A stretch of 41,393 bases of DNA from a virus (Duplodnaviria > Caudoviricetes), in IMG/VR virus record IMGVR_UViG_3300005996_000032, positions 1 to 41,393 of that record; one strand, given 5' to 3'. Of the stretch, positions 7,081-41,215 are shown one piece after another. Positions within the stretch are counted from its first letter, which is position 1. Every line of letters starts with the position of its first letter. The notes below the pieces were generated by a model. The model was given only the letters and a program-made list of their open reading frames with translations, was not told the DNA's origin and did no database searches. The position numbers were made by a program, and so were the translations under genes.

Positions 7081-7102
7081 TATATAGTGGTGAGTAATTT
7101 AT
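7075..7102 (-). promoter_or_regulatory. phage RNAP promoter (phiOR-like)
   Basis: Minus strand AAATTACTCACCACTATATAGAGGG; core shared with three other intergenic copies; T7-like CACTATA. Confidence 0.85.
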
Positions 7103-7123: not shown

Positions 7124-8896
7124 TTAGCGACGGGATTTCCGGCTGCGGAGGGCTCTGTTCTTGCCCATCCAGCCACCACGCCGCTTCGGTCGGGCCGGTC
7201 GTTCACCACCGGGAGTTCCCAGGGTGTGCGTGCTGCGCTTCCACCGCTTGAGTTCCTCCTTGAGTTGGCGGTCCTCGTAGTCCGACTTGGCCTTGGTGGT
7301 GTCCCTGGACAGGTAGTCGAGCCAGTAGCCCACTCCCATAGCCAGGGCGTCCAGGCGGTCATCCTTGGCGAGCGAGCCGCGCTCCCTGGTGACCCTGGTC
7401 ATCTGGTAGAACAGGCGGTAGCGGTTCTGCTCCTCGGTCGGATACTCCTCGGTGCTGCGGAAGTCCTGCTCGATCACGCTGGGGCTCACGATGAGCCTGT
7501 GGGCGTTGAGCACGGGCTCCAGGGTGTCGATGATCCTGGCCTCCTTCTGCTGCCGGGACCACTTGCTGTCCTCGATAGCCACTCGGTAGACCTTGTAGCT
7601 GACCGCGCGGAGAAGCTGGGCGAACATGCCGTCACCGAAGTTCGGCTCGACAATCACCTTCTTCACCTCCTCGCGCTCTGCGATCTTCATGAGCTTCACG
7701 AGGGTGTCCTCGGAGTAGCCGCCCTTGATGCCGCCAGCGGCGGTCAGGTAGAGCCTCCCGTGGAGCATCTTGAGGACGACGTAGGCCGTCTCGTCAGAGC
7801 CTCGACCGGCAGGGTCAATGGCCATGATGGCCCCGGTATACTCTGTCCACTCGTTCTCCACCGACATGGGCCGGTAGTAACGGTCTCCGTCGAGCCCCAC
7901 GTTGGGGAGGTTCTCGATGGTGAGGTCGGGGCTGGATGCCCAGATGACATCGGTCGGAGCCTTCTTGGGGTTGGTGTCCATGACCACGAGGTCGGAGATG
8001 CGGAGCGGGTGTCGGTCGGCGTCCGATAGGCTCGTGTCGAGCATGAACTGGAGGGCGAACCCTGTGCGACCGTAGGAGAGCTTGCGCTCCTCCAGGTCCT
8101 CCAGGCCGAACCGCTTGGGGTCCGTAGGCTTGCCCACTAGGCTGGGATCGTCCTGTAGCTCCTGGGCGATCTTGGGGGCTAGGCGGGTGCCGTACTTCCC
8201 CACCTGATCCTCGTCGGGATACAGGGCGGGCCAGATGCGGAGGACGTAGCCGCGTTGAGGTAGGGTGTTGTAGAGGGACTGCTCCGTCTGGGGCGTCCCG
8301 AGGTAGATCACTCGGCCACCCGGCTTGAGCACGGCGTCGAACTCCTTGACGAGTTCCAGGATGTGCTCCCGCATGGTGTTGGTGGCGGAGTTGCTGACCA
8401 CCTCAATGTCATCGGCTACGATCACGTTGGCGCGCGAGCCGGTGATCTGCCCGGTGATCCCAACGGACTTGACCGAGGGGCTGTCGTCGGCCCTGGCCGG
8501 TCCCACGTCGAAAGCGATCTTCGAGGTCCGCTGATCTCCCCTGGGCACCAGGTGGCGTAGCTGGGGGATTTCGTAGATGAGCCGTAGTGCGAAGGTCGAG
8601 AAGTTGTCGGCGCGGCTCTTGGATGCCGACACGACCATGATGCGTGTCTGTGGATCGCAGTAGAGAAGCCAGACCACGAATGCGACGGTGATCCAGGATT
8701 TCCCTACGCCTCGGAATGCCTCAATGATGAGGCGGCGCGGTCCATGCTGTAGGAACTGCGCCATGTCGTACTGGACTGGGGTCGGCTCTGGTAGAGCCAG
8801 ATGGTTCCAGACCAGCCATAGGAAATTGCGGAAGTCGAGGAGCGGGTCTTTGACTTGGGTGTGGCTCGTACTCGACTGTAGTTGTTGCTTGGTGAT
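7124..8896 (-). CDS. terL: terminase large subunit (T7 gp19-like); proposed ATC start at 8896
   Basis: AFRGVGKSW Walker A, ITGSRANVIVADDIE Walker B, IDPAGRGSDET and DDRLDAL nuclease motifs. The gp19-like N-terminus DFRNFLWLVWNHLALPEPTPVQYDMA lies upstream of the ORF-track ATG (8764), and an in-frame TAA sits at 8909-8911. Confidence 0.95.
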   Translation of the reverse strand: MTKQQLQSSTSHTQVKDPLLDFRNFLWLVWNHLALPEPTPVQYDMAQFLQHGPRRLIIEAFRGVGKSWITVAFVVWLLYCDPQTRIMVVSASKSRADNFSTFALRLIYEIPQLRHLVPRGDQRTSKIAFDVGPARADDSPSVKSVGITGQITGSRANVIVADDIEVVSNSATNTMREHILELVKEFDAVLKPGGRVIYLGTPQTEQSLYNTLPQRGYVLRIWPALYPDEDQVGKYGTRLAPKIAQELQDDPSLVGKPTDPKRFGLEDLEERKLSYGRTGFALQFMLDTSLSDADRHPLRISDLVVMDTNPKKAPTDVIWASSPDLTIENLPNVGLDGDRYYRPMSVENEWTEYTGAIMAIDPAGRGSDETAYVVLKMLHGRLYLTAAGGIKGGYSEDTLVKLMKIAEREEVKKVIVEPNFGDGMFAQLLRAVSYKVYRVAIEDSKWSRQQKEARIIDTLEPVLNAHRLIVSPSVIEQDFRSTEEYPTEEQNRYRLFYQMTRVTRERGSLAKDDRLDALAMGVGYWLDYLSRDTTKAKSDYEDRQLKEELKRWKRSTHTLGTPGGERPARPKRRGGWMGKNRALRSRKSRR

Positions 8897-19208: not shown

Positions 19209-21601
19209 TAGACGCTCCTGTTGCGGTTGACGTAGTTGGCGGTCCACGCCCCCGATACGAGTTTGCACGGGAACGGGCTGCGGTTGGTGACTTCGATCAC
19301 CGTGCCCCTGGCGTTGCTCATGACGGGCACGCGGAACTCTCCATCGGACAGGGCGATCTCGCCTTCGACGTTCGCGCTGTCGCCGTCCTGCCGCCCGGTG
19401 AACTGGTACGAGTACGTCTTGCGGTTCTTCGGTGTCACATGGACCTCGAAGTGAGCCGTCTCGTTGTAGACCAGGGTCAGGTAGCGAAGCTGGATGCGCC
19501 CGCCTGTGCGGATCGTGATGCCGCCGCCCGTAGCCTCCTCACGAATGAAGAACTCGGAGAAGCGGTAGAGCATCTCGTAGGGGACGCCCGCCCAGAAGTC
19601 GGTATCGGTGAGGTCGCCGCGAACCGTCACTTGGTCGCCGCTCACGTCCTCAACGAACACATGCCGCCCATCAGCCGAGGCCACCTCGATCTCATCAGCC
19701 TCGTAGGGAAGCGTGAAGGTCGAAGTATCCTCCTCCTCGTCATAGCTGACAGAGCCGAGGTCGTCGCTGTGGACCCTGCGGTCCAGGAGGGTGGCGTATT
19801 CGCCTTCGGGGTCGGTGTAGGCCGGGTCGATGGGAATGCGTTCGAGGGCAGTCTGGCCGTCCTCGTAGCGAACCAGCATGAACATCTCGGAGTTCACGAT
19901 GTCCACGTTGAGGATCGTTGATCCCTCCTCGATCTCCCACTTGCTCCAGGAGGACTGTAGCTTCTGCCGGTCGTCCCAGTAGTAGACGTAGATGTAGATG
20001 GTCCGAGGCTCCTCGCTGGAGACCGCCGCTAGGACGCTCTCGGACGCGGAGGTGGTGACCTTGAAGATACCCGTGGGGACATACGACGGGGCGTGCCCGG
20101 TGATGTCGTTGGTGTCGTAGGTGCCAGCCATGTCGTCCATCAGGAAATACTCGTGGAAGGACGAATGGTCGCCACGGTCGGCGGCGAAGTAGATGTAGCG
20201 CCCCGACGACACGGGCTTGGCCGTGGTGGAACTCTCGAACTCCGTTGTGGGGTCGATGGAGACCGTCCTGGGTGATAGGAGGTTGTCGGCCTCCAGGGCG
20301 AACTGCGTCTGGTCCGAGAAGAGGAACAGGTCGTTTGCCCAGGGAACCGCGAAGTTGAGGATCGACACCTTGTCGTGGGTGGTGTCCACGTCGATGGGGT
20401 CATCGTCCAGGATTTGTAGGGCCGTCGTCCTCCAGAAGTTGAAGAAGTCCCCTGCCCTGGAGGCGATGAACGTCTCGTCGGACAGGAAGCCCAGGCGGTT
20501 CTTATGGAAGGTCACGTCGGAGATGGTCCTGCCGATGAAGCTCGGCGGGGGAACGATCTCTTCGTCGCCCGATACCCTCGTGTCCCACTCCTGGGACTTG
20601 AAGGTGAACGTGCCGTCTGCCTCGGAGATGAGGGTGTGCGGCATGGTCGATGGGAGGAGCGTCGTTCGCACCCCAGGTTCGGGGCACTCGCGCCACACCT
20701 TGCCGTTGAACCGGACGAAGTAGTGGTCCATGTCGTTCTCCTGGCTCCCGAAGACCTTGATGACGAAGCCGTCTGGTCCGCTCGGGGGAAGCCGGGAGAA
20801 GTTCTGCGTCTCGTCCTTGAGCGCGTACATGGACTGCTGCGCGAAGCCGTCCTCGGTTCGGATGGTGAAGTCCGAGTTGCCGGTGATGTAGAGGACATCC
20901 TCGTACCGGGTCCATGAGAAGCCGCTGGGGAGGTTGTCCTCCAGGTTGTTCCCGAACTCGGCTGTATGGGAGGTAGGGAAGTTCACCCCGTCTGCGCCCT
21001 CTGCCAGCGCCTTGGCGATGTTGGTGGTGTCGATGGTGTCAACGTCGGTCTCGGGGTCTGTCCCCACGCCGTCGCCTGGGCGGTAGCCCGCGACCTCCAC
21101 GTCATTGACGAAGATGCGATACCAGCGCCCGTAGTTGCCCGCCTTGACAGGCACGATGGCCTCAAAGGGGCGGCTCGGTTCCGTCTCGTTGGGGTCGAGC
21201 CCGGTCACGACCGACTTGTTGGTGATGAACGTGAAGTCGGCCACGGTGACGGCTCGGAAGCCATGCCGGGGGTTGCTGTTGGAAAGGTATGCCTTACCAT
21301 CGGGGAAGTTGACCGTGCGCTCGTCGCCGGTGTTGGCATCGAACACGCGGAGGTCACCGTCAGCGATTACCGTGTAGTAACGCTCCTCGGTGTCCCGGTT
21401 GATGAAGTGGGTGAATGCGCTGTCGCCAACGTCCTGCTGGATCGAGCCAACGTAAATCCTCGGGGGCCTCTTCTTGAGACCCTCAACTACCGTCGAGTAG
21501 GCGTTGATCTGTTCGTCGCACTGGGTGGCTAGGCGGAGGCTGGGAGACTGTTGCGAGACCCCATTGATGAGGTTCGCAATGCTGCTGCTGATGCTTGCCA
21601 T
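19208..21601 (-). CDS. tail tubular protein B (gp12-like nozzle)
   Basis: NLINGVSQQ, GLKKRPP, PSFIGRTISDVTFHKNRLGFLS, QSSWSKW motifs; 797 aa. Confidence 0.95.
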   Translation of the reverse strand: MASISSSIANLINGVSQQSPSLRLATQCDEQINAYSTVVEGLKKRPPRIYVGSIQQDVGDSAFTHFINRDTEERYYTVIADGDLRVFDANTGDERTVNFPDGKAYLSNSNPRHGFRAVTVADFTFITNKSVVTGLDPNETEPSRPFEAIVPVKAGNYGRWYRIFVNDVEVAGYRPGDGVGTDPETDVDTIDTTNIAKALAEGADGVNFPTSHTAEFGNNLEDNLPSGFSWTRYEDVLYITGNSDFTIRTEDGFAQQSMYALKDETQNFSRLPPSGPDGFVIKVFGSQENDMDHYFVRFNGKVWRECPEPGVRTTLLPSTMPHTLISEADGTFTFKSQEWDTRVSGDEEIVPPPSFIGRTISDVTFHKNRLGFLSDETFIASRAGDFFNFWRTTALQILDDDPIDVDTTHDKVSILNFAVPWANDLFLFSDQTQFALEADNLLSPRTVSIDPTTEFESSTTAKPVSSGRYIYFAADRGDHSSFHEYFLMDDMAGTYDTNDITGHAPSYVPTGIFKVTTSASESVLAAVSSEEPRTIYIYVYYWDDRQKLQSSWSKWEIEEGSTILNVDIVNSEMFMLVRYEDGQTALERIPIDPAYTDPEGEYATLLDRRVHSDDLGSVSYDEEEDTSTFTLPYEADEIEVASADGRHVFVEDVSGDQVTVRGDLTDTDFWAGVPYEMLYRFSEFFIREEATGGGITIRTGGRIQLRYLTLVYNETAHFEVHVTPKNRKTYSYQFTGRQDGDSANVEGEIALSDGEFRVPVMSNARGTVIEVTNRSPFPCKLVSGAWTANYVNRNRSV

Positions 21602-21602
21602 C

Positions 21603-22235
21603 TTAGCGGCCCGAGGAGACCCTCAAGGGGCGACCATTGCGGCGGCGAAGGATCGCTGCGGCGTGGCGGTTGCGTAGGAGGTTCGCGCCCTTGGTCCTGA
21701 TCTCGGACTGGCGGAACGCGGAGCGAGCTTCCATCTCGTCATCCTTGGTGAACATATGGGTGGCCTCGTCGCCCATCACGCGATCATGGAAGATGCGCGC
21801 CGCGCGGATCGTGATGTAGTGGCGGGTGGCCTCTGGGAGGTGCTCGAAGGGCATGTTGAGGATCATGTCCACGTAGACAGGCTCCCCGATGTTGTAGGTG
21901 TGGCCGCGCCGGTCATAGAGGCGCTTGCCGCGCACCACGAGGTCACGCTCGGTGTTGGTCGTGGGCTTTATCTCGTCTGCTTCGATCACGTTGCCGGGGA
22001 GAACGATCTCGCCCGTTGAATTTGGTGTGATCCGGTAGCCCTTCTCGGTGTTCGAGTTGAGCCCTCGGGTCTGGACCTGTCGGCTGGTGGTTCGCAGGAT
22101 GTTCCTGGCGATAGCGGCATCGACATTGATGTCGTCCTCCAGCGAGGATACCGGCGTCTCACCGATGGCCGACAGCATGGTGTTGATCGCCTCTCGCTCC
22201 GTAGTGGGCATGAGGGCGTCTGGATTGAACTCGAT
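21603..22235 (-). CDS. tail tubular protein A (gp11-like); proposed ATC start at 22235 (alternative ATG at 22211)
   Basis: TEREAINTMLSAIGETPVSSL and FEHLPEATRHYITIRAAR motifs; AGGAGG 5 nt before an in-frame ATC. Confidence 0.92.
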   Translation of the reverse strand: MEFNPDALMPTTEREAINTMLSAIGETPVSSLEDDINVDAAIARNILRTTSRQVQTRGLNSNTEKGYRITPNSTGEIVLPGNVIEADEIKPTTNTERDLVVRGKRLYDRRGHTYNIGEPVYVDMILNMPFEHLPEATRHYITIRAARIFHDRVMGDEATHMFTKDDEMEARSAFRQSEIRTKGANLLRNRHAAAILRRRNGRPLRVSSGR

Positions 22236-22261
22236 TGGTTCCTCCTGGGTGAATGATGATG

Positions 22262-22301
22262 AAAAAAAGGGACGCCCCCAGAGTTAACCGGGAGCGCCCC
22301 T
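22262..22301 (-). terminator. T-phi-like terminator after the major capsid gene
   Basis: Minus strand AGGGGCGCTCCCGG-TTAACT-CTGGGGGCGTCCCT followed by a U run. Confidence 0.9.
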
Positions 22302-22334
22302 AAAGAGGTCGTGCGTGGACCTACTCGCTAGTGA

Positions 22335-23279
22335 TTAAGCGAGTTCGTCCGGGCGGATTTCAACCGCGCAGTCGGGACGGAGAACGCCGTGGCCGACCAG
22401 GTACTTCGCCACGATGAGCGTGCCCTGGTAAGGCATCTGGTATTCCATCTCGACACCGAGGTCCATGAGCTTGACCGTGCCAACTGCCTGTCGGTTCATG
22501 ACCAGTGCGGTCACGCCCGAGAAGTCGTCGCGGTACTTCTCATGGATGTCGTCGTTGGAGGTATCGTCCTCATCAGCAAGGTTGTTCGTCTTGATGATCG
22601 GGAGGCCACCCACGGTGTAGATGGTGCCCTTGGAGATCGAACCAGCGCCGTCGTAGTCGCGGTTGATGTACGTCTTGTTCTGCGCCAGCGAGTAGAACTG
22701 CGCGGGCTTCACAAAGGCGAAGCGGTCGTTCTCGGGAACGTCCTTCTCATCGAAGTTCTGCTGGGCCGAGAACAGTGCCTCACCCAGGACATCGCTGTCG
22801 CTGTCCACGTCGGCGGCTACGATGGTCGAGCCACCGGGGAGATCGTCAACGGGGTTCTCCGAACGCGCGGCCTGTACGCCAACGCGAGCGACGTTCTTGT
22901 CGTAGTGTTGCGCAAGCGCCTCACCACACTGGAACGAGTATTCCGAACGCACGTCGTAGTGGTTCATGGCCTCGTCCACGTCCGCGATGAAGACATCCGC
23001 AATGAGCTTGTCGTCAATGGTGATGACCTGCTCGTTGTGGTTGACGGACTGGCCGTCGATCTTCGTGCCGGGGGTGTGGTTCCGAGTACCGATGCGGCCA
23101 GTTGCCGGGAACTGGGCCGACTTACCGTGGGCGATCTGACGCACACGATGGCGCTCTGCGAACGCGGTCTTGCGGCGGAACGCCGTCATTACTTCGCCGC
23201 CGAACACCTTGAGGAAGAGTTCGCGGTCGCCGCCCTCGGCATTGATCTGACCGGAGCGGGAAACCAAAAAGTCTGGCAT
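22335..23279 (-). CDS. major capsid protein (gp10-like)
   Basis: LFLKVFGGEVMTAF, GKSAQFPATG, ITIDDKLIAD, YDVRSEYS, GHGVLRPDCA motifs. Confidence 0.97.
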   Translation of the reverse strand: MPDFLVSRSGQINAEGGDRELFLKVFGGEVMTAFRRKTAFAERHRVRQIAHGKSAQFPATGRIGTRNHTPGTKIDGQSVNHNEQVITIDDKLIADVFIADVDEAMNHYDVRSEYSFQCGEALAQHYDKNVARVGVQAARSENPVDDLPGGSTIVAADVDSDSDVLGEALFSAQQNFDEKDVPENDRFAFVKPAQFYSLAQNKTYINRDYDGAGSISKGTIYTVGGLPIIKTNNLADEDDTSNDDIHEKYRDDFSGVTALVMNRQAVGTVKLMDLGVEMEYQMPYQGTLIVAKYLVGHGVLRPDCAVEIRPDELA

Positions 23280-23497
23280 GTGTATAATCCTGTTGTCTGG
23301 GTTGTGGTTTCTTGTTCTCCGTAGTCAGACATCAGAAACAACGAGATTGTCCTCCGGCCACTGGACGCATCCAGTAGTAGAAGGGTCAGGTATTTCACGT
23401 TGTCATCTTACGGTGGGGTCACCCCCTAAGGAGGGGTGTGATCTTCCCTTTTCCAGACAAGGAATTGCCTATCAGTTTTGCTTTTTGATAGGCACGT

Positions 23498-23573
23498 TGG
23501 TCGGCGCGGCAGGACTTGAACCTACAACCTCCCCATTATCGGTGGGGTGCTCTACCAGTTGAGCTACGCGCCT
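23498..23573 (-). tRNA. tRNA with GAU anticodon (Ile identity), atypical A1:G72 mismatch and C33
   Basis: 76-nt cloverleaf AGGCGCG TA GCTC AACTGGTA GAGC A CCCCA CCGATAA TGGGG AGGTT GTAGG TTCAAGT CCTGC CGCGCCG A CCA; encoded CCA; anticodon at 23538-23540. Confidence 0.93.
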
Positions 23574-23660
23574 CCAGGACCGTTAAAGCAGCGATCAGTG
23601 TTCACGCAGGCATCCTGGGATAAGAGGGCCGTGGTTTGCATTGCAGGGACCACAGCCATG

Positions 23661-23933
23661 TCAGTCTGCGAGGCTGTCGTAGAAGGCGATCAGGCGTTGA
23701 CCGCATTCCGACTTCTCTGCCTCGGATTGCTTGAGGGCCGCGATCAGGTGGATCACGTCGGCTCTCGTCAGTTCTCCATCGGGCGGTGCCGGGACGGCCT
23801 CTTTGAAGCACGTTCGGATGTCCGAGGGGATTTCGGGATAGGTGGCCTCGACCAGCCTACTCCCAGAGCTTGCGCAACTCGTCAGTATCGTCACTGTCAA
23901 GGCACATGCGATTATCTTCCAGAGAGGCGACAT
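23661..23933 (-). CDS. o-spanin (Rz1-like lipoprotein)
   Basis: Signal peptide with LTSC lipobox; Pro-rich; overlaps the i-spanin end in another frame. Confidence 0.8.
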   Translation of the reverse strand: MSPLWKIIACALTVTILTSCASSGSRLVEATYPEIPSDIRTCFKEAVPAPPDGELTRADVIHLIAALKQSEAEKSECGQRLIAFYDSLAD

Positions 23934-24195
23934 AGCTTGTCAGTCCTCCTACACGGTTGTTGAGTGCGGTGAGCCGCTCCTGGGCGTCATCGGCGCGCTG
24001 GGCATCCTGTGCCCTAGCCTCGGCCTCACGGGCGATCCGTCTGTCCCGCACCTCGATCTCTGTTTGTAGGGTCTCGACCTGTCGCTCGTTGCGTTCGTCG
24101 GAAACCCCTTTGGCGTAGATCGCCCAGACCGCGCCGAGGGCGGCAATCACGGCGATCCCATAGGGTAGGAACCGCAATAGAATTGCTGGTAGCAT
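23857..24195 (-). CDS. i-spanin (Rz-like)
   Basis: N-terminal TM helix, coiled coil, C-terminal Cys; overlaps the lipoprotein gene. Confidence 0.8.
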   Translation of the reverse strand: MLPAILLRFLPYGIAVIAALGAVWAIYAKGVSDERNERQVETLQTEIEVRDRRIAREAEARAQDAQRADDAQERLTALNNRVGGLTSYVASLEDNRMCLDSDDTDELRKLWE

Positions 24196-24420
24196 CTAGC
24201 GTTTTCCTCCTGTGATCTTGTTGAGGACCCTTCGGTAATCTAGGTGGCCGATCCCGGTGTAGACGCCATACAGGGTGCCCACGAGGCCGAACCCGGAAGC
24301 CACAACTGTGGTGGCTTGGTCGGTCCAGATGGACAGGTAAATGGCGATCCAGACGAGGACCATGTTGATAGCCAGCCAGACCTTCGAGGTCCTACGCTTG
24401 CTTCTACGTTCTTCGGCCAT
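24196..24420 (-). CDS. putative holin (2 TM helices)
   Basis: Basic N-terminus, two hydrophobic segments, basic C-terminus; lies between amidase and spanins. Confidence 0.65.
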   Translation of the reverse strand: MAEERRSKRRTSKVWLAINMVLVWIAIYLSIWTDQATTVVASGFGLVGTLYGVYTGIGHLDYRRVLNKITGGKR

Positions 24421-24856
24421 TGGTGAAGCCGTCGATGTTCCCGAAGGTGTCGCTGGGTACGTCGAACGAGGGACACGCCTTGCCGGGGTCGAACTCGTTA
24501 TGGCCCGCGATCCGCACGATGCTCGGGAAACGCTCGGTGAGGTCCTGGAGTAGCCCACGGATGGAACTGACCTGGGCCTCTGTGCGGGTGTCCTGCGCGA
24601 TGTTCACGTCGTTAGCATCCACGCCGCCAACGTAGCAGATATGGATGTTGTCGCGGTTGTGTCCGTAGACGCCAGCGCCTTCTTGGGAGAGGGGTCGGCC
24701 CTCTTCGATGGTGCCGTCCAGGTAGCCGACAAAGTGGTAGCCGATGTCTCGCCAGCCGTTGTCGTTCACATGCCAGTCGCGGATGTCTGCGACGGTGTGC
24801 TCACGACCACCGGGCGTGGCCGAACAGTGGATGGTGATGGTTGTTGGGTTCTGGAT
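24404..24856 (-). CDS. N-acetylmuramoyl-L-alanine amidase endolysin (T7 gp3.5-like); proposed ATC start at 24856
   Basis: ITIHCSAT (Zn ligand), WH...GWRDIGYH, ICYVGG, AGHNE, KACPSFDV; the first motif lies upstream of the ORF-track GTG (24769). Confidence 0.92.
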   Translation of the reverse strand: MQNPTTITIHCSATPGGREHTVADIRDWHVNDNGWRDIGYHFVGYLDGTIEEGRPLSQEGAGVYGHNRDNIHICYVGGVDANDVNIAQDTRTEAQVSSIRGLLQDLTERFPSIVRIAGHNEFDPGKACPSFDVPSDTFGNIDGFTNGRRT

Positions 24857-24933
24857 GGTGTCTCCTTGGGAGCGGCCCCGAGGAGGGGACCGATCTGGCC
24901 GGCCCTTCCCTCAACTCGGGGTCTTACGCTGTC

Positions 24934-25818
24934 TTAAAGGTTCTTGGAGTTGGCGAGCTTCTTCTCGACCTGGGCGCGGAACGCCGGGTCGGAATGGTAC
25001 TTCTCGTTGTCCATGTCGCGGCTCACCTCGTCCCACGATCCGTAGGTGTCGCCGGAAGTGGCTTGACCTTCGCCGCCGAGGCGCTTGCTCGGAGGCTTAC
25101 CGTTCGCTGCCTCATACTTGCCCTTGAGGGCGTCGATGGCGAACAGGACGGTGTTCATGTCGCCGCTCTCGAACTGCTTGTTGACCGTCTCCATCTCCTT
25201 GTCGGAGAGGTTCTTGCCAGCCCATTCGAGGACTTCCGTCTGCTGCTCCTCGCCGCCGAATGCGTTCTGGATGGTCGAGGTCTGCCGCTCGTTCATGGCC
25301 TTGGCACCTTCGATGTAGGTGTCCACCAGGAACTCGGGCACGTCGAACATCTCCAGGATTTTCTCCCGGCTCTCCTCGGAAATCTCACCGGTCTCGGCAA
25401 GCTCCTTGGTGTAGTCCTGGAGGTCCTCCTCTGTGATCTCGCTGGCCTTCGGCTTGTCGTCCTTGTCGGACTTGTCGTCGCCGTCAGCGTCCTCGCCATC
25501 CTCCCCATCCTCGGCGTCGTCGGCCTTGCCGTTCTTCTTGAGTTCGGCAAGCTCCTGCTGCGCCTTGGTCAGGGCAGACTGCTGCTCCTGATAGGACTTG
25601 GCGAGGTCTTCGGGGCTCTTGAAGTTCTCGGGGAGCCACTCGGGGCGGTCGCCGGTGTCGTCGGACTGCTGCTGCTGGTCTCCCTGCTGCTCTTGTCCGT
25701 CGCCCTGGGACTGCTCGTCGGAGGCGGTCTCTTCGCCGTCAAAGGTCTTGGCCATCTCGGCGTCGTTGGGACCCTCTTTCGGGGTGCCTTCGGATGTGAA
25801 CGTGATGTGGTCAGCCAT
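24934..25818 (-). CDS. capsid scaffolding protein (gp9-like)
   Basis: RPEWLPENFKSPEDLAKSY; acidic; C-terminal KYHSDPAFRAQVEKKL. Confidence 0.92.
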   Translation of the reverse strand: MADHITFTSEGTPKEGPNDAEMAKTFDGEETASDEQSQGDGQEQQGDQQQQSDDTGDRPEWLPENFKSPEDLAKSYQEQQSALTKAQQELAELKKNGKADDAEDGEDGEDADGDDKSDKDDKPKASEITEEDLQDYTKELAETGEISEESREKILEMFDVPEFLVDTYIEGAKAMNERQTSTIQNAFGGEEQQTEVLEWAGKNLSDKEMETVNKQFESGDMNTVLFAIDALKGKYEAANGKPPSKRLGGEGQATSGDTYGSWDEVSRDMDNEKYHSDPAFRAQVEKKLANSKNL

Positions 25819-25967
25819 TAGTAGCTGATGACCTTGATGCGCTTGTTCTCGCTGGTGACCTTGCCGCGCTTCGGTGCAGCCTTCTTCGGCTTGGTGGACC
25901 GCTTGCGCTTCGTCACCTTAGGGGTCTCTTCCGTCTGCTCGACGGGAGTGCTCTGTTCGTCGCTCAT
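25818..25967 (-). CDS. small basic protein between portal and scaffold (49 aa, not in ORF track)
   Basis: MSDEQSTPVEQ...KRIKVISY; ATGA and TAATG overlaps with both neighbours. Confidence 0.65.
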   Translation of the reverse strand: MSDEQSTPVEQTEETPKVTKRKRSTKPKKAAPKRGKVTSENKRIKVISY

Positions 25968-27556
25968 GCTTCTTGCTGTGCTGCTCTCTCTGTTTCTGCC
26001 TGTTGCTTCATTCCCTCCTTGGCCATGCCGCCGCCCTGCTGGATAAGCTGGGGGAGCATCTCCTGGAGCATCTGCATCATCTGCTGCTGCTGGCCTTGCT
26101 GGCCCTGCTGCTCCTGATTGATGACGAGGTGGCGGGCGTCGATGTTGAGCGCCGCTGCTCGCTGCTTGAAATACTCGGGCAGGTTGATCGTCTCTGCGAT
26201 CTGCTCGGGCGGGAGGTACTGCGCCGCCGTGCCGATGAGGTTGTCCAGGGACGCGAGCGAGTGGGCTCGGCCAAGGGCCTCAATGCCGGTGACGATGACG
26301 GGCTTAACGTCCGCTTCCTTCGGTAGGGCGGGGACGCGCTTGGCCCTCTCCATGCGCTTCTCGTAGAGGCGCACGACTGGTAGCTGGAACTCGATAGCCA
26401 GGAGCGAATAGACGCCACCCAGGGCATCATCCAGTTCCTCGGTGAGACGCCTGATCTCCTCGGCGGTGACGCGCTCGGCGTTCCGCTGGACAGACTGGTG
26501 CATCATGAAGGCCAGGGACAGCCGCTGTGTGATGTCCTGGATCATTTGCAGCGCAACCTGGAGGTCGGCTTGCTTCTCTACCTGGAGGGCTCTGACCTCT
26601 TCGGGCTGGCCTTCGACAAACGCGCCGTTCTCGGCCTCTTCCAACTCCTGGACAGACACGCTGCCATTGGGGTTGACGAGGAAGATGAGACGGGAGCTTG
26701 CTGCTGCCCCTTCGAGGACGGCCTCCATGAGACCTTCGAGCGACAGTAGGTCGCCAATGAACTCCTCGATCAGGCCGCGCCCGTAGTCCTCGTTCTCCAG
26801 CGAAGTGAAGCGGAGGGGGACGTAGGGGTTAAGCTCGGGGCGGTGGGTGCCCTCGGAGCCCTTAACGACCGTATCCTCAACCTGCTGGTACTCCTCGATC
26901 TTCCCGTTTTCGTTGAGGAAGAAGTGGGTGTAGAGGTCGAACTTGTCTTCGTCCTTGATGTCCTTCCCGGCGTAATTGTCCGAGGTCTTAATTGCCTCTT
27001 GGACCTCCTCGGGCAGTGCGGTGTAGGCGATCTTCTCTTTGATGACGCCTTCTAGCAGGGTGCCGGTGGGGTCTCTGGCAATGACGTAGCTATCCAGTCG
27101 GTAGCCGCGTGGGATCGCCTTGGGATCGGTGGGAACGTACAGGAGGTAGTTGCCGGAAACGACAAGCTGCCTAACGCTCTCAAACGCAAGGGGCCGGAAC
27201 TTGGAGTTTTCCATCTCCGTCTTGACGGCCCGTGCGCGCCGGTCGAGTGCCTCGTCAAACTCACCGCGTGTACCCTGCTGCTCGGAAAGCTGGTCGATGG
27301 TGAAGTCATCAATCTGGTACTTGAAGCACGGTGCGTTCGGCGGGTAGAGCGCGAGGAGGAGCTTCGATGAGATCGTCCTGACGCCCCTGGAGCCAATCGA
27401 CTGTTGGGGGGTTTCAAATTCGCTGCTTCCGCTATGGCCGTCCTCGGGCATCAGGGTCGGGATAGTAACCTTCGCGGCGTCTCGTGCGCGTTGAAGGAAC
27501 TGGTCCCGTGACCCTGTGAGGGCGGAATACCGCTTGGCAGCCGTTCCTTGTTTCAA
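25964..27556 (-). CDS. portal (head-tail connector, gp8-like); TTG start
   Basis: QSIGSRGVRTISSKLLLALYPP, EDYGRGLIEE, RNAERVTAEEIR, LGGVYSLLA motifs. Confidence 0.97.
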   Translation of the reverse strand: MKQGTAAKRYSALTGSRDQFLQRARDAAKVTIPTLMPEDGHSGSSEFETPQQSIGSRGVRTISSKLLLALYPPNAPCFKYQIDDFTIDQLSEQQGTRGEFDEALDRRARAVKTEMENSKFRPLAFESVRQLVVSGNYLLYVPTDPKAIPRGYRLDSYVIARDPTGTLLEGVIKEKIAYTALPEEVQEAIKTSDNYAGKDIKDEDKFDLYTHFFLNENGKIEEYQQVEDTVVKGSEGTHRPELNPYVPLRFTSLENEDYGRGLIEEFIGDLLSLEGLMEAVLEGAAASSRLIFLVNPNGSVSVQELEEAENGAFVEGQPEEVRALQVEKQADLQVALQMIQDITQRLSLAFMMHQSVQRNAERVTAEEIRRLTEELDDALGGVYSLLAIEFQLPVVRLYEKRMERAKRVPALPKEADVKPVIVTGIEALGRAHSLASLDNLIGTAAQYLPPEQIAETINLPEYFKQRAAALNIDARHLVINQEQQGQQGQQQQMMQMLQEMLPQLIQQGGGMAKEGMKQQAETERAAQQEA

Positions 27557-27559
27557 TGT

Positions 27560-27760
27560 TTACCTTGGTACGTTGGTGCCCGCGCTGGACCGTCCGGTCG
27601 CTGCCGAAGGGGCACTGCGCCTCACGCGGAGACGGCCTCGGCCACGGCGGCGGCTCTCGGGCTGCTCATTGGTTCCGTAGACAGGGGGTCGCTGTGATGC
27701 GGGGGCTGGTGCTGGCGCGGGGGCCTTGTTCTCAATTTTGGGTGGGCTAGGTGGGCACAC
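27560..27760 (-). CDS. small virion protein (gp6.7-like); GTG start
   Basis: MCPPSPPKI...PAPAPAP...RRRGRGRLRV pattern; AAGGAG SD; precedes portal. Confidence 0.65.
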   Translation of the reverse strand: MCPPSPPKIENKAPAPAPAPASQRPPVYGTNEQPESRRRGRGRLRVRRSAPSAATGRSSAGTNVPR

Positions 27761-27761
27761 T

Positions 27762-27968
27762 CTATCGTTCTCCTTTGCGTTCTTGTCGTCGCTTGAGGGA
27801 CTTGAGGTGGTCCACGACACGTCGGGAGCCAAGGCGAAGAAGCATCTCCCTCTCATTGGCCATGTCCTCATTGGGCAGGGCATTGGGGAATTTCTCTTCG
27901 AGGTAGTCGATCATGAAGTCGTCAACCTCGGGTGCTCGGTCGCTCTTTATCTTCACTCGCGTAGTCAT
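27762..27968 (-). CDS. conserved small protein (gp6.5-like position)
   Basis: DYLEEKFPNALP...GSRRVVDHLK; first gene after the late promoter. Confidence 0.7.
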   Translation of the reverse strand: MTTRVKIKSDRAPEVDDFMIDYLEEKFPNALPNEDMANEREMLLRLGSRRVVDHLKSLKRRQERKGER

Positions 27969-27983
27969 CGAGTAAGACCGGGG

Positions 27984-28008
27984 GCTCTATTAAGTGGTGA
28001 GTAATTCA
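27984..28008 (-). promoter_or_regulatory. phage RNAP late promoter
   Basis: Minus strand GAATTACTCACCACTTAATAGAG; core at 27993-28006; upstream of the structural operon. Confidence 0.85.
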
Positions 28009-28371
28009 TCCGCGTGTCAGCCTCTTCTCCTCTCGGATGGCGAACCACTTGATCTTGCGGATGTCGTAGAGGGGGTCGTTGCCCTCCTTCTCGCCCAGGC
28101 GGAAGCACGCCTTGAAGATGTTGCCGACCGCGAAGTTCATGTTCTTCGCCTCGATCAGGTCCTGTAGCTCGGTCGCGTCGGGTGGAAGCTGGTAGTAGTC
28201 GGTCGAGCCTCCATCGGACTTGATGGGTTCGATCTCGTCTAGGATCAGGAGGTCGGCCTTGGAGCCGGTAACGTCCCTCGCCACCTCCACTTTGTTTTCA
28301 CATGATGTCGGGCATTCCCCCCGTGCCAGTAGGCAGTTGCAGGGGGAATAGTCCCTCAAGTCGGCTCCCAA
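28006..28371 (-). CDS. DUF3310-like (gp1.7-related) protein; start uncertain
   Basis: DGGSTDYYQLP...MNFAVGNIFKACFRLGEK...YDIRKIKWF. Confidence 0.7.
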   Translation of the reverse strand: MGADLRDYSPCNCLLARGECPTSCENKVEVARDVTGSKADLLILDEIEPIKSDGGSTDYYQLPPDATELQDLIEAKNMNFAVGNIFKACFRLGEKEGNDPLYDIRKIKWFAIREEKRLTRG

Positions 28372-29207
28372 AGTTTCACTTCTCCTTTCTTGAAGTCGTA
28401 GTTCTCGAATTGCAGGATGTAGGCGAGCCGCGCCTGGAGGATCGCGTCTTCCTCGGTGAGGTCGTTGCGCTCGTAGTGGCTCACGATGGCATCCCAGTAG
28501 GTGTCCATCGGGGTCTTCTTCCAGCGGGTCTCGGTCTTGCCCTTGCGCGGGCCTCTCTTGAAGGTGTGCTCGTAGGGCTCAATTCCCACGGGCTCCTCAC
28601 CGCCCAGGAGTTCCTGCGCGCCCTGCATCCCGATGCCGGGGCAACCGGGGAAGTTGTCCACCACGTCGCCCGCCAGGGCTTGACAGTAGAAGTGAAGCTC
28701 GGCCTCGTCGGGAGAGACCTTGAGAAGCTCGTCGGACTTCGGGAAGAATACCTCGCCGGGGATCGTCTGGAGGTCCTTGTCCTCGGTGATGATGACCTGC
28801 CGCCACTTCTTCCACTTCGGGTGGGTGGCGGAAATGCCAATCACGTCGTCGGCCTCCAGGTTCTCGATTGCCTTCCCGTCCATGTTCTCGACGGCCCACC
28901 TGCGGAGCCAGCGGAGGATGATCGGTCGGCCAGAGGCGGGGCGGTTCCCCTTGTAGTCGGGGTAGATGTCGTGCCGGAAGGTGGTGGAAGAGTTGGACAC
29001 GGCGAAGAGAACCTCATCGGCGTCGAACTCCTCCACCATCCTTTCGACGTACTTCTCGACGGCTTCACACGCTGCCGCGCGATCCGCCCAGACGGTGGAG
29101 ATGTCATGTGGCTCGGGCCAGTCGATCACCTCCTCTACCGCTGCGGCGGCGGCGAACACGATGTGGTCACCGTCGATCAGTAGCCGAGTGCGCTTGCGCT
29201 TAGCCAT
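28356..29207 (-). CDS. 5'-3' exonuclease (gp6-like)
   Basis: LLIDGDHIVF, FRHDIYPDYKGNR, LEADDVIG, EDKDLQTIPG, GDVVDNFPGCPGIG. Confidence 0.95.
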   Translation of the reverse strand: MAKRKRTRLLIDGDHIVFAAAAAVEEVIDWPEPHDISTVWADRAAACEAVEKYVERMVEEFDADEVLFAVSNSSTTFRHDIYPDYKGNRPASGRPIILRWLRRWAVENMDGKAIENLEADDVIGISATHPKWKKWRQVIITEDKDLQTIPGEVFFPKSDELLKVSPDEAELHFYCQALAGDVVDNFPGCPGIGMQGAQELLGGEEPVGIEPYEHTFKRGPRKGKTETRWKKTPMDTYWDAIVSHYERNDLTEEDAILQARLAYILQFENYDFKKGEVKLWEPT

Positions 29208-29448
29208 GAAGTGCGTCGGCACCGTCCAGGATACGCTCGGTGAGGGTCTCGTTCACGGCGGCGTGGTCGGGATAGAAGAGGGTGCCCTCCTCCGTCTGGA
29301 CCGTCCACTGGGCGGCACGGTTCACGAAGAACTCGGCCCAGCCGAAGGTGTTTCGGGCGGCGACGAGGATGAGACCGGCGAGCCACAGCGGGATCGCGGT
29401 GAGGAAGGTCACGAGTGCGCGGGTGCGTACAGCGTTTCGAGTGCTCAT
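29200..29448 (-). CDS. small membrane protein
   Basis: ATG at 29448 with AAGGA SD; one TM segment. Confidence 0.6.
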   Translation of the reverse strand: MSTRNAVRTRALVTFLTAIPLWLAGLILVAARNTFGWAEFFVNRAAQWTVQTEEGTLFYPDHAAVNETLTERILDGADALHG

Positions 29449-29774
29449 ATGGTGTTTCCTTTCCAGGTTGTTACACGGTGGATACGAGACAGGACGTAGG
29501 AGACGCTCTGGGCGCTGGTGTCGAACCATTCGCCTTCGAGCCGCCTGTCGTCCAGGACCTCGTGGATGATCCGCTCGACCTCGTGGTAGCCACGAATGAA
29601 GAAGCGGATGTCTTGAAATGCGAAAGACCTGTAGGGGTCTAGGATGTTGAACTCCTGTAGTCTTTTCAGGGGGTTTTTGGACGAGCCGACCTTGCATAGA
29701 CCTGGGTAGGCCCTGGAGGTCAGGACGTAGACGAAGCCGGGGGAGCTAGTGCGTTTCCGCCCAGTTAAGTCCAA
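29445..29774 (-). CDS. T5orf172/GIY-YIG-like domain protein; start uncertain (TTG 29774)
   Basis: GFVYVL...LCKVGSSKNPLKRLQEFN...VERIIH...GEWF. Confidence 0.75.
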   Translation of the reverse strand: MDLTGRKRTSSPGFVYVLTSRAYPGLCKVGSSKNPLKRLQEFNILDPYRSFAFQDIRFFIRGYHEVERIIHEVLDDRRLEGEWFDTSAQSVSYVLSRIHRVTTWKGNTI

Positions 29775-31878
29775 TGTCCGCGCTACCGCTAAGGGGGCAG
29801 CGGAAATCGTAGAAGCGTCCTGCTTCCGCGATTGACCACTCGGCGGCTTTGGCAACTGTGTCAGCGATCTCCTCTTTAACTTCGATCTGGAACTCGTCGT
29901 GGATGTTGGCTACGAACTCGTAGTGTTCGCCGGGGACAAAGCCCTGCTCCTGTAGGTGCTTGTCCAGGATCACCAGGGCGCGCTTCATGAACACCGAACC
30001 AGCCCCCTGGAGGAGGCTGTTGAGTGCTGCGTGGAGGTTGCGGATCGGAATGCGGCGACCGTCAGGTCCCTTGATCCAGCCCCTCTGCTTGCCCCGCTTC
30101 TGTACGCTGTCGATCAGCTTGGCGAGCGCCGGGAGCTTCTTGAGGAACCGCTTCTGCGTCTCCTCGCCCTTCTTGATGATGGCGTTCTTGCTGCCCGTGG
30201 CACCGGCGTTGACACCGAGGGTGAAGAACCATGCGCCGTAGATGAAGGCATAGAACCAAGTCTTTGCTGCATCTCGGATAATCCCCAGCGCCGTAGCGTT
30301 CTGGGAGTGCATGTCTGTGCCCTGCTTCTTGTCCCCGTTGAGGACCGTCTCGATGTAGGCACCGTTGTCCCAGCGGGCCATGTAGCCAGCCAGACAGCGA
30401 AGCTCCAGGGCGTCAGCATCACAACCGACGATCCGGCGTCCCTTGGGAGCCGTGAAGAGTTCGCGGCATTCCTTCCCGTAGGGGAGCTTCTCGCCGGTCC
30501 TCTTGTCGTAGATGCCGGGGACGTTCGCCACACCGTAGTGCGTCATGCGGCCCGTAACGGCCCCATTGGTGTTGGCCCCTGCGGGGAGCCGACCATCGGA
30601 GCGCATGTTCTTGAGCCACGCCTTGTTGCCCTCGGAGACTTGGCCGAGGCGCTTCTGGACGGTGTAGTATTCCGCCACCAGCTTGGCTTCCGGCCAGGGG
30701 AGCTTCTCCAGGACCTCTTCCGAGACCTTGGGTGCGCCCCCATCGGTAAGCTCAACGGGCTTCCAGTTGCGGTAGGTGGTGAGCCGGTCGGCCACCTCGT
30801 CCCTGCTGCCGGGGTTGAAGGGGGCCAGCTTGACCTTGGTGTATTGGCCGTGGGTGATGCGGGTGGGGTTGCCGTCCGCGTCCTTGACCGTACCGATGAT
30901 CTCCTCGCCGCCCGTGTAGTGGCACTTAGGTGGGCCGACGTAGGGCTTGAGTTCCTTGCCGGTCTTCTCGGAGAAGCGCCGCACGGTGATGTCGGGGAAG
31001 TCCGTCATCTTGACGGAGCGGGACTTCTTTGGACGCTCGCGGCCCTTCTTACGGAACCACGGGGGGAACACCTCCTGTAGCTCCTCCTCGATCTCGGCCC
31101 TGCGGCCTACAAGGTGGGCAACCAGTGAACCGGCCTTCTCCTGGTCGATCAGGAAGCCGTGTTGCTCCTGCCTCCAGATGATCTCGGCAACGTCGTGCTC
31201 CATCTGAATGGCGTCCATCCCCGGCTTGGGGTGGAAGTCCAGGGGGTCGAGCCCCCACTTCTCGAACTCGGAACAGAGCTTTCTCCAGGTGGCCTCGGTG
31301 ACCTCCACGTCGGTGACGCAGTAGTCCTGCATCTCCTGGCTCCAGGTGCCCCAGACGTACTGGACAAGCTCGTCGCCCTTGAGGCCCTTGAGCTTTCCTT
31401 CGGCCTTCTTGGCGTTCCCATAGTCGCCCTTCCAGAGCCCCAGGCGGTAGCCCCAGGCTTCCAGGCTGTGGCGACCGTAGAACTGCTTCGGTATCCACTC
31501 GACGCCCTTCTTCCGCTTCTTCGCCTCGACCTTGTTGTCCGTCGCCCACATATCGGAGTAGGCGAGGTTGGACATGGTGAGGGTGTCGCGGACGTGGGCC
31601 TTCGGTTTGAACCAGGGGTAGACCTTCTGGAGCGCCGGGATGTCGAACCGGATGATGTTGTGGCCGATGATGAGGTCGGCCTCTTGGAGCTTTTTGACGC
31701 CAGCTTCGATACCGTTCTTGGTCCCGGCATGGATGGGCATGATGAGCCCGTCGTCTTCGTCGTCGTCGTGGTAGCTACCCACCTCCCCTGTGTCGGGGTC
31801 CTTGATGACAAGCGAGTGGACGACCGTCAGTTGGTCGAGGAGGCCGTCCGTTTCGATGTCGAAGATGAGTGTCTTGAT
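29746..31878 (-). CDS. family A DNA polymerase (T7 gp5-like); proposed ATC start at 31878
   Basis: Exo I IFDIETDGL (upstream of the ORF-track GTG), GHNIIRFDIP, DADALELR, KTWFYAFIYGA, NIHDEFQ. Confidence 0.96.
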   Translation of the reverse strand: MKTLIFDIETDGLLDQLTVVHSLVIKDPDTGEVGSYHDDDEDDGLIMPIHAGTKNGIEAGVKKLQEADLIIGHNIIRFDIPALQKVYPWFKPKAHVRDTLTMSNLAYSDMWATDNKVEAKKRKKGVEWIPKQFYGRHSLEAWGYRLGLWKGDYGNAKKAEGKLKGLKGDELVQYVWGTWSQEMQDYCVTDVEVTEATWRKLCSEFEKWGLDPLDFHPKPGMDAIQMEHDVAEIIWRQEQHGFLIDQEKAGSLVAHLVGRRAEIEEELQEVFPPWFRKKGRERPKKSRSVKMTDFPDITVRRFSEKTGKELKPYVGPPKCHYTGGEEIIGTVKDADGNPTRITHGQYTKVKLAPFNPGSRDEVADRLTTYRNWKPVELTDGGAPKVSEEVLEKLPWPEAKLVAEYYTVQKRLGQVSEGNKAWLKNMRSDGRLPAGANTNGAVTGRMTHYGVANVPGIYDKRTGEKLPYGKECRELFTAPKGRRIVGCDADALELRCLAGYMARWDNGAYIETVLNGDKKQGTDMHSQNATALGIIRDAAKTWFYAFIYGAWFFTLGVNAGATGSKNAIIKKGEETQKRFLKKLPALAKLIDSVQKRGKQRGWIKGPDGRRIPIRNLHAALNSLLQGAGSVFMKRALVILDKHLQEQGFVPGEHYEFVANIHDEFQIEVKEEIADTVAKAAEWSIAEAGRFYDFRCPLSGSADIGLNWAETH

Positions 31879-32021
31879 TGGCAGACCTCATAGATAGCGA
31901 GGACCACCTCCTTCCACCGTGAGGCGTCCAGGGTGATCGTCGCGAGTTTCGTTTTGAGGATCAGATTGCCTCCGTCAGTGGAGACGTTTAGATAGCCCTC
32001 GTCGGGGTGGATTACTGGCAT
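31827..32021 (-). CDS. hypothetical protein overlapping the DNA polymerase start
   Basis: 64-aa ORF coupled to the upstream gene; last ~50 nt overlap the polymerase 5' end. Confidence 0.5.
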   Translation of the reverse strand: MPVIHPDEGYLNVSTDGGNLILKTKLATITLDASRWKEVVLAIYEVCQSRHSSSTSKRTASSTN

Positions 32022-32521
32022 TCAGGGACGTACTCCGTCACAAGGTCTCCCTTGAGCACCAGCCACTTGTCCGTCAGCCCGCCGTTGGAGCGGATCATGC
32101 TGCGAATGTGGACGGGGTACTCGGAGAGAAGTGCGTTGGTGCCGCTGTCGCGGTATTCGACAACGCCGTCCATTGGCTCGCGGAACGGCGCATGGAACCA
32201 GAACTCTGCGCCCTCTCGGGCACATACGCGGTCCAGGTCGAGGAACAGGGTGCAAGCGGACATGCAGGAACCGTGGAACTCCACCTTGGTCCCAGCCTGT
32301 CGCCACTTCTCGCGGGTCTGGATGAACTCCTGTACGAGACCGCCGCCGTTGTCCTTGATGATTACGCGGTCGGGCGGTGGCGCGGGGTTTGCATTGCTCT
32401 CGGGCATCGTCCCCGCTGCGATAGCTGCGACCATCCCGGCTGCTGCTAGAAAGCCAGCGATGGGCCAGACAGCATCAAAACGGGATTTCATCGGCGTCAT
32501 CGTCAATAGGATCGAAGCCAT
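32012..32521 (-). CDS. membrane-anchored ClpP/crotonase-like fold protein
   Basis: N-terminal hydrophobic segment; IKDNGGG, GSCMSACT (Ser), FWFHAP (His). Start uncertain. Confidence 0.6.
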   Translation of the reverse strand: MASILLTMTPMKSRFDAVWPIAGFLAAAGMVAAIAAGTMPESNANPAPPPDRVIIKDNGGGLVQEFIQTREKWRQAGTKVEFHGSCMSACTLFLDLDRVCAREGAEFWFHAPFREPMDGVVEYRDSGTNALLSEYPVHIRSMIRSNGGLTDKWLVLKGDLVTEYVPECQ

Positions 32522-35311: not shown

Positions 35312-35313
35312 GA

Positions 35314-38649: not shown

Positions 38650-38672
38650 TTCCTCAAGTGGTGAGTAAATGC
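38650..38672 (-). promoter_or_regulatory. phage RNAP middle promoter
   Basis: Minus strand ATTTACTCACCACTTGAGG right after the RNAP stop; core at 38657-38670. Confidence 0.85.
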
Positions 38673-41191: not shown

Positions 41192-41215
41192 CGTTATACA
41201 GTGGTGAGTAATTAT
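41192..41215 (-). promoter_or_regulatory. phage RNAP promoter upstream of the RNAP gene itself
   Basis: Minus strand TAATTACTCACCACTGTATAAC; core at 41200-41213. Confidence 0.8.

Follow-up and report, generated by a model that had tools for sequence, protein, structure and literature searches.

The only tRNA gene called in this T7-like provirus specifies a tRNA-Ile(GAU) that departs from a standard elongator at two places, an A1·G72 mismatch at the end of the acceptor stem and a C33 in the anticodon loop. The same genome contains three core genes that, from their reading frames, appear to start obligatorily at ATC, and a fourth gene probably does so too. C33 is a recurrent trait of mobile tRNAs, found in phages and tRNA arrays, and is not private to the present gene; A1·G72 is close to private to this phage. 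It stands at about an even chance that the tRNA is an elongator backup belonging to the mobile C33 family and that the ATC starts are read weakly by the host fMet-tRNA. The likelihoods given to this and to the other readings are judgements and were not computed. Positions refer to the window, which is the whole stretch of 41,393 nucleotides that was analysed, and papers are cited by PMC number.

Table 1. Features of the window that bear on the tRNA(GAU) gene and on the putative ATC starts.
Feature	Position	Strand	Basis or remark
tRNA-Ile(GAU) gene, encoded CCA	23498..23573	(-)	ARAGORN, Rfam, position-by-position numbering
tRNA(GAU), key positions	A1 23573, G72 23502, C33 23541, anticodon 23540-23538	(-)	
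tRNA(GAU), further pairs	C30:G40 23544/23534; U50·G64 23524/23510	(-)	
Trailer with second, diverged acceptor 3' strand	23486..23497	(-)	canonical U72, then A and TCA
9-bp hairpin predicted to mask the second acceptor strand	23466..23494	(-)	folding z -3.46, -3.21
Major capsid gene, directly downstream of the tRNA	22335..23279	(-)	PHROG; ATG start
Terminator-like hairpin, 3' of the capsid gene and upstream of tail tube A	22268..22301	(-)	
Tail tubular protein A	21603..22235	(-)	probable start ATC 22235-22233 behind AGGAGG
T7-lysozyme-like amidase	24404..24856	(-)	putative start ATC 24856-24854 behind AAGGAG
Candidate phage RNA polymerase promoter copy	27993..28006	(-)	position and T7 layout
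T7-like DNA polymerase	29746..31878	(-)	putative start ATC 31878-31876 behind GAGGT
Terminase large subunit	7124..8896	(-)	putative start ATC 8896-8894

The tRNA, called by ARAGORN with anticodon GAT, scores 62.9 bits against Rfam RF00005, and its sole non-standard pair is 1:72. Below the mismatch the acceptor stem continues with G2:C71, G3:C70, C4:G69, G5:C68, C6:G67 and G7:C66. The D-stem has C11:G24 and U12:A23, the anticodon stem C29:G41, C30:G40 and A31:U39, and the anticodon loop C32 C33 G34 A35 U36 A37 A38; U50·G64 and A51:U63 are present, and the molecule ends in A73 and the encoded CCA. All stems other than 1:72 are paired, and the elbow bases G18, G19, U55 and C56 are intact. The identity set of IleRS comprises the GAU anticodon, A37, A38, A73, C4:G69, U12:A23 and C29:G41. 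An earlier note on this DNA had claimed that the full set is present together with an A1:G72 mismatch and C33, and that the arms pair well in a gene that is not decayed; the numbering found every feature it had listed. The cloverleaf and the identity elements are thus those of an elongator tRNA-Ile(GAU), but A1·G72 and C33 replace a paired 1:72 and U33, so that the molecule is a variant and not a standard member of that class.

Canonical initiator tRNA carries C3:G70, A11:U24 and a CAU anticodon. The present tRNA shares with initiators the 1x72 mismatch with G2:C71, whereas G29:C41, G30:C40 and G31:C39 are all absent, including the minimal G30, and G3:C70, C11:G24 and GAU stand in the other three places. 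The description of the gene as a hybrid without the three G:C pairs and with the elongator C11:G24 therefore holds. An origin from tRNA-fMet or tRNA-Pro was considered and dropped, as the nearest compared tRNAs are Ile(GAU): they make up 23 of the 25 best-scoring among 2,366 compared tRNAs, in a set enriched for GAU.

An assembly error is unsupported. Two Logan assemblies (X1 and X2), which are possibly the source samples and hence not an independent sampling, match positions 21000-33000 as one piece with 2 differences that leave the tRNA unaffected. Both agree with the window at the three putative ATC start codons inside that stretch, the terminase ATC lying outside it. An identical tRNA is found by alignment in L002, and the same tRNA is called in L001, L263 and L264. 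The acceptor copy in the trailer can pair 8/8 with tRNA positions 1-8, and a comparable trailer occurs in 2 of 228 GAU tRNAs, one of which is that of the present phage. Owing to the 9-bp hairpin, the G72 cloverleaf is predicted to be the favoured fold of the longer precursor. In the precursor, base pairing is predicted between the leader bases UGG (23574-23576) and the encoded CCA (23498-23500), which could shift or slow 5' processing.

The window record is classed as a provirus. PHROG matches outline a T7-like gene layout on the minus strand, in the order RNA polymerase, ssDNA-binding protein, endonuclease, primase-helicase, DNA polymerase, exonuclease, portal, scaffold, amidase, capsid, tail tubes, internal virion proteins, tail fibre and terminase. 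The best named relatives of the polymerase, at about 51-53%, come from rhizobia and Mesorhizobium phage Lo5R7ANS, which makes an alphaproteobacterial host likely. The sequencing runs that contain window DNA are labelled hypersaline lake metagenome, and among 401 genomes from the order to which G004 belongs, none matched the prophage family at E 1e-100. Phage Lo5R7ANS (Autographiviridae, NC_025431.1) has the same gene order, with the amidase and further genes of the lysis region likewise placed between scaffold and capsid, and a polymerase of 51% identity. However, ATG is the start codon of the polymerase, amidase and terminase in that phage, and its sole tRNA is a tRNA-Leu near the integrase.

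The tRNA(GAU) gene sits between lysis-region ORFs and the capsid gene. No sigma-70 promoter was found near it. A 14-base motif occurs in four minus-strand copies (7086-7099, 27993-28006, 38657-38670 and 41200-41213), one on each side of the RNA polymerase gene, one ahead of the late region and one behind the terminase, and by its position and the T7 layout it is a candidate promoter for the phage RNA polymerase; the copy listed in Table 1 is the nearest one upstream of the portal, the lysis genes, the tRNA and the capsid. In the nearest fetched relative (L003/G001, capsid identity 74%) the capsid leader is kept and the tRNA is absent, and no tRNA was found anywhere in its 25.4 kb, which represent 63% of a genome. 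The conserved leader (window 23280-23450, minus strand, against L003 2812-2925) contains a nested hairpin (z -1.83) and is possibly a processing site or a regulatory RNA; in a loose search its motif matched 2 of 95 capsid loci, one being L003. The spot before the capsid gene is occupied by tRNAs in other T7-like phages as well, by His in L010 (2743-2815) and by Pro, Met and His in L278 (2537-2786). Compensation for codon use was considered and set aside, since nothing unusual was seen: the Ile codons of 23 genes are 364 ATC, 53 ATT and 9 ATA of 9,018, and the capsid has an Ile content of 5.4%. The window proteins matched no translation factor in Pfam (35 proteins), NCBIfam (14) or PHROG (42), and the scanned set held no Fmt, initiation factor or tRNA-modifying gene.

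In the genes for the DNA polymerase, the amidase and the large terminase, no in-frame ATG, GTG or TTG lies between the upstream stop and the conserved N-terminal motif, and an SD followed by ATC is found in place of a canonical start. The polymerase frame reads I-K-T-L-I-F-D-I-E, its D-I-E aligning to residues 5-7 of T7 polymerase, of which D5 and E7 are catalytic. The first GTG lies 32 codons past the ATC, beyond this exonuclease motif, and a CTG two codons before the ATC is without an SD. In the amidase the first GTG is 29 codons past the ATC, after an H-C-S-A-T that aligns with T7 lysozyme, where the motif provides a zinc ligand. The first ATG of the terminase comes 44 codons past the ATC, the D-F-R-N-F segment aligns with T7 from residue 18 on, and three relatives have ATG at the position aligned to the ATC. 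The start of tail tube A is probable and not obligate, because an in-frame ATG follows 8 codons later, albeit without an SD, and because G001 has a TTG behind a like SD. The SD energies at the obligate ATC starts are -6.8, -8.3 and -7.3 kcal/mol, and the SD of tail tube A has a value of -10.3; the SD sites of the ATC starts are no stronger than those of the other 48 genes (p 0.26). A hand census of 52 genes gave 45 ATG, 4 ATC and 3 TTG, with no ATT or ATA; it does not count the endonuclease or one small ORF, whose starts are ambiguous. The ATC of endonuclease I (35314) went uncounted as a start because a GTG follows one codon later. Its start region (35311-35317, minus strand) offers CTG, ATC or GTG beside the ssb stop codon, and G001 has a comparable CTG-ATC arrangement.

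Near-cognate AUU and AUC starts are known from E. coli infC and pcnB. Like them, the present starts combine a strong or normal SD with an Ile codon at the homologous start position; unlike them, the four are ATC without exception and share their genome with a tRNA cognate to AUC. Starts in other phages were surveyed by homology among T7-like relatives and, separately, by a homology-free (blind) test over 49 genomes. Obligate non-canonical starts were found in 1/70 polymerases, 1/29 endonucleases and 3/55 portals (ATA/ATT), and in none of the 94 capsid, 73 tube A, 60 tube B, 51 primase and 16 terminase genes, nor in amidases, of which two overlapping sets (8 and 11) were surveyed. The three portal genes (L318, L327 and L751) have no canonical start, and an ATT or ATA stands behind a very strong SD. 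The blind test recovered the three obligate ATC starts among 50 genes of the present phage and found 7 among the 1,981 genes of the 48 other phage genomes (p 0.0008), and the present phage was the only one of the 49 with three; against 13 T7-like relatives the p value is 0.017, and against the six closest genomes (4/220) it is only 0.06.

No GAU tRNA was detected in the T7-like relatives that were scanned. The polymerase nevertheless starts at ATC in G001, which is 63% complete, and the polymerase and a spanin-like gene both do so in G414, which is 92% complete, and neither genome has a detected tRNA. A looser rule, which calls a start probable when an Ile codon has a better SD than any canonical codon, flags 4/16 of the relatives' terminases and 3/73 of their tube A genes. 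Judged from the sequences of G001, G414 and these terminases, starting at ATC is a habit of the clade in its own right. A general link from weak 1:72 pairing to ATC starts was not borne out: 15 phages with a weak or mismatched 1:72 in their tRNA(GAU) have 1 ATC start in 715 genes, against 1 in 801 genes for 20 genomes with a Watson-Crick 1:72, about 40 kb having been read per genome for most. The phage of L864, whose tRNA also carries A1·G72, has no ATC start among the 28 and 31 genes of two regions. The highest ATC count thus coincides with the present tRNA, but ATC starts occur without such a tRNA and weak-1:72 tRNAs occur without ATC starts.

Gene callers truncate proteins with ATC starts (P0121, 678 aa; P0175, 546 aa), and in a 41-kb relative the database polymerase and terminase are both truncated. 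The polymerase and terminase of the clade are cut short in public gene calls because of their non-canonical starts, a result that stands even on the plainer reading of the tRNA. Many polymerase entries from Sinorhizobium/Ensifer prophages (P0136, P0142, P0145 and P0156-P0172) begin after the D-I-E motif, which may reflect clade-wide non-canonical starts (ATC in L734, CTG-like in L735) or the choice of the gene caller.

The distribution of C33 was followed in viral sequences with a pattern fixing the D-stem, the loop and the T-loop. Estimated totals are about 260 stretches for C33-GAU and about 2,700 for U33-GAU, so that C33 accounts for roughly 9% of viral tRNA(GAU); over all anticodons they are about 1,600 and about 59,000. 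After removal of sequences with poor stems (5 of 111 and 2 of 117), 106 distinct C33-GAU and 115 distinct U33-GAU sequences were left. An encoded CCA is commoner in the former (87/106 vs 46/115), and so is G30:C40 (92/106 vs 51/115); a YCGAUAA loop is common to 102 of the 106, and 1:72 is paired in 100. The present tRNA has the C33 in a YCGAUAA loop, the Ile-type body and the encoded CCA of this mobile family, and it is without the paired 1:72 and the G30:C40 that are usual, though not universal, there. Its nearest resemblance is to other tRNA(GAU) genes with C33. Two members of the genus Pakpunavirus, PAK_P1 (NC_015294.2) and EM (ON169972.1), carry tRNAs with the same D-arm, a CCGAUAA loop with C33, A1, A73 and encoded CCA, the tRNA-Ile of EM being 84% identical to the present tRNA over 76 nt. 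They differ in having A1:U72 and G30:C40 in place of A1·G72 and C30:G40, and they belong to phages of 93-95 kb, whereas the present gene is solitary in a 41-kb T7-like provirus.

In a prokaryote collection (185,579 species genomes), scanned for C33 only, about 230 C33-GAU stretches were found. The 80 loci with full flanks yielded 71 well-formed matches after 9 were dropped; 55 of the 71 lie within clusters of at least 5 tRNAs and 4 lie near a 16S-end motif. The few C33 tRNA(GAU) near the 16S rRNA end in assembled genomes (L478, L516 and L532) may be housekeeping variants or assembly errors. Neighbouring non-GAU tRNAs carry U33 in 55 of 60 cases, and C33 is therefore anticodon-selective. It is not exclusive to GAU: by uncorrected tests GAC (13/112 vs 0/155), GUU (20 vs 9) and UAC (9 vs 2) are over-represented among C33 tRNAs too, and viral C33 is frequent in tRNA-Val(GAC), Asn(GUU) and Val(UAC) (L343-L468). 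The U-G-U signal that directs queuosine insertion in Asn tRNA includes U33. Literature searches, with subscription journals largely and supplements outside their scope, found no paper on C33 in phage tRNAs; the supplements of PMC10264068 list phage loop changes and could bear on earlier reports of it. Even on the plainer reading it holds that C33 recurs among the tRNAs of phages and arrays and is selective for anticodon, and it is testable in the culturable PAK_P1.

The other departure is distributed differently. A 1:72 mismatch is found in 6/106 C33 and 3/115 U33 viral tRNA(GAU), which is no difference (p 0.32). A full scan for a purine-purine 1·72 with CCA returned 6 stretches, namely 2 copies of the present phage, L864 and 3 others with badly paired acceptor stems, which leaves L864 as the only intact A1·G72 outside the present phage. 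Because array tRNAs sharing the acceptor but with C1:G72 exist, and because the trailer strand has U72, the mismatch could have arisen by one substitution or by a 3'-end duplication. The earlier note would have counted private changes at both positions against its claim; this is nearly so for G72, hence for half of that condition, while C33 recurs.

Combining these observations, it is possible to describe how the tRNA would act as an elongator backup. The phage polymerase would transcribe it together with the capsid gene, and the host would process it and charge it with Ile, so that it could supplement Ile decoding if the host were to cut or block its own tRNA-Ile. C33 would alter a loop that is recognised by a host enzyme, and A1·G72 would be a tolerated private change. 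The ATC starts would be a separate habit of the clade, likely read with low efficiency by the host fMet-tRNA, which would keep the polymerase, the amidase, the terminase and tail tube A scarce. The Ile-type body (C11:G24, U12:A23, C4:G69, C29:G41 and A73) supports this, as do the ATC starts of G001 and G414 and their scarcity in weak-1:72 phages. An E. coli initiator with U29C30A31/U39G40A41 is formylated, yet gives no detectable initiation in a normal strain (PMC3017606), and the present C29C30A31/U39G40G41 can be likened to it; G30 is given as the minimal initiator requirement (PMC5389676). It is the missing G30, which most of the C33 family has, that places the elongator above a reader of AUC starts. 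Altered phage tRNAs that rescue the phage have precedents (PMC12445682, PMC10264068), for example a tRNA-Thr(UGU) that counters P2-OLD (PMC12445682). Among the roles offered in the earlier note, that of a nuclease-resistant replacement for the host tRNA-Ile is the most likely, although the nuclease is hypothetical: literature searches turned up no such host enzyme that recognises tRNA-Ile(GAU) at position 33. Nuclease-resistant phage tRNAs reportedly include a tRNA-Tyr directed against retron-Eco7 PtuAB and a tRNA-Lys directed against PARIS AriB. Like these, the present tRNA is phage-borne with an anticodon arm differing from those of host tRNAs; unlike them, its changed base is 33, and both its resistance and the matching nuclease are hypothetical.

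Several points count against the elongator. According to PMC6393288 a mismatch at 1x72 contributes to the exclusion of a tRNA from EF-Tu and protects it against Pth, so that A1·G72 is poor for an elongator. Charging with Ile is in doubt as well: on initiator tRNA, the change U33C blocked t6A37 formation by the TsaBCDE enzymes of E. coli, and bacterial IleRS has t6A as a strong determinant (PMC8887486). That C33 blocks t6A with certainty was not accepted, as a 2026 structure of TsaBD has no base-specific contact to U33 (PMC13276492). AUC is quoted as being read by fMet-tRNA at only 0.1-1% (PMC11744186), and the unexceptional SD sites of the ATC starts count against the elongator reading too. 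Finally, this reading leaves it as a coincidence that three ATC starts, present in no other of the 49 genomes, occur together with a solitary mismatched GAU tRNA. It is possible, if clearly less probable, that the tRNA is instead the phage's own reader of AUC starts, which would be charged with Ile, formylated by way of the open 1·72 and used for the polymerase, amidase, terminase and tail tube A. In the lysogen such lytic genes would be almost silent, and their expression would rise once the phage polymerase makes the tRNA. The anticodon matches the four ATC codons of the census, three of the genes have their conserved motif ahead of the first canonical codon, and the blind test, the rarity of obligate non-canonical starts among relatives and the want of GAU tRNAs in those scanned all point the same way. 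With initiator tRNA-fMet and the engineered GAU variants the molecule shares the unpaired 1·72, so far intact only here and in L864, as well as G2:C71, A73 and U50·G64. In vitro, engineered GAU initiators can start at AUC, where they were poor to begin with but came near the native level after refolding changes (PMC11744186); tRNAs without the three G:C pairs, and elongators, initiate when fMet-tRNA is low (PMC3017606); and what drives formylation is a 1x72 mismatch together with the pairs 2:71 and 3:70 (PMC6393288). However, this is an elongator-Ile body with C33 and with none of G29, G30 and G31, although most C33 relatives do have G30:C40, and with C11:G24 and G3:C70 where initiators have A11:U24 and C3:G70. 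Furthermore, the clade has ATC starts without a detected tRNA, the excess over the six closest genomes has a p value of only 0.06, and the rule for probable starts flags terminases and tube A genes of relatives too. Neither the phage of L864 nor the 15 weak-1:72 phages show ATC enrichment, a single lineage is concerned, and the scanned proteins include no Fmt or initiation factor. The interpretation in the earlier note is partly supported: the three obligate and one probable ATC starts in core genes speak for its suggestion of a non-canonical initiator, and the absent G30:C40 and the comparisons with other phages speak strongly against it.

Two further readings are less probable. It is unlikely that the tRNA is a decoy or a brake and not a working adaptor. 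As a decoy it would be poorly charged for want of t6A and would serve as bait for a host enzyme that cuts or modifies tRNA; as a brake it would be formylated but stalled at the 30S-to-70S step, holding back the ATC-start genes and delaying lysis. The effect of U33C on t6A37, and of t6A on IleRS charging (PMC8887486), would fit the former. For the latter, formylation licenses 30S binding and the three G:C pairs license the 30S-to-70S step (PMC5389676), and the open 1·72 end protects from Pth (PMC6393288). Yet the 106 distinct C33 tRNA(GAU) keep their stems paired and 87 of them encode CCA, as suits a role in translation; a bait would presumably have kept the U33 loop of the host; and the TsaBD structure makes the t6A argument less secure (PMC13276492). 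More doubtful still is that the gene is a recently damaged passenger, in which a 3'-end duplication or a recombination left a mismatched acceptor and which no longer matters. The second acceptor strand with canonical U72 after the CCA could be a trace of such an event, no diverged orthologue was found, and the closest relative is without the gene; but the other stems pair, the CCA and the elbow bases are intact, the Rfam score is 62.9 bits, and the hairpin is predicted to favour the G72 fold.

If the tRNA does read AUC starts, nature would have provided a second initiator tRNA whose anticodon is not that for Met, and a prophage would have a new means of silencing toxic lytic genes. A temperate phage would then have recoded its start codons, with those of the polymerase, amidase, terminase and tail tube A moved to AUC and a formylatable tRNA(GAU) of its own gating the lytic programme; this is put forward here as a tentative idea that we hold to be improbable rather than probable, and it would parallel the stop-codon recoding of phages. 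Altered anticodon arms are known in phage tRNAs, and so are near-cognate starts in general; literature searches, with most subscription papers outside their scope, found no phage-encoded AUC initiator, and the combination seen here appears to be new.

Two further features of the window lie apart from these questions. A long GC-rich hairpin (24877-24921, minus strand) is found between the scaffold and amidase genes, just upstream of the amidase SD. Positions 4282-4701 on the minus strand give a weak match to the S-adenosylmethionine lyase family (E 9e-5, below the curated cut-off), which would fit a T3-like anti-restriction gene.
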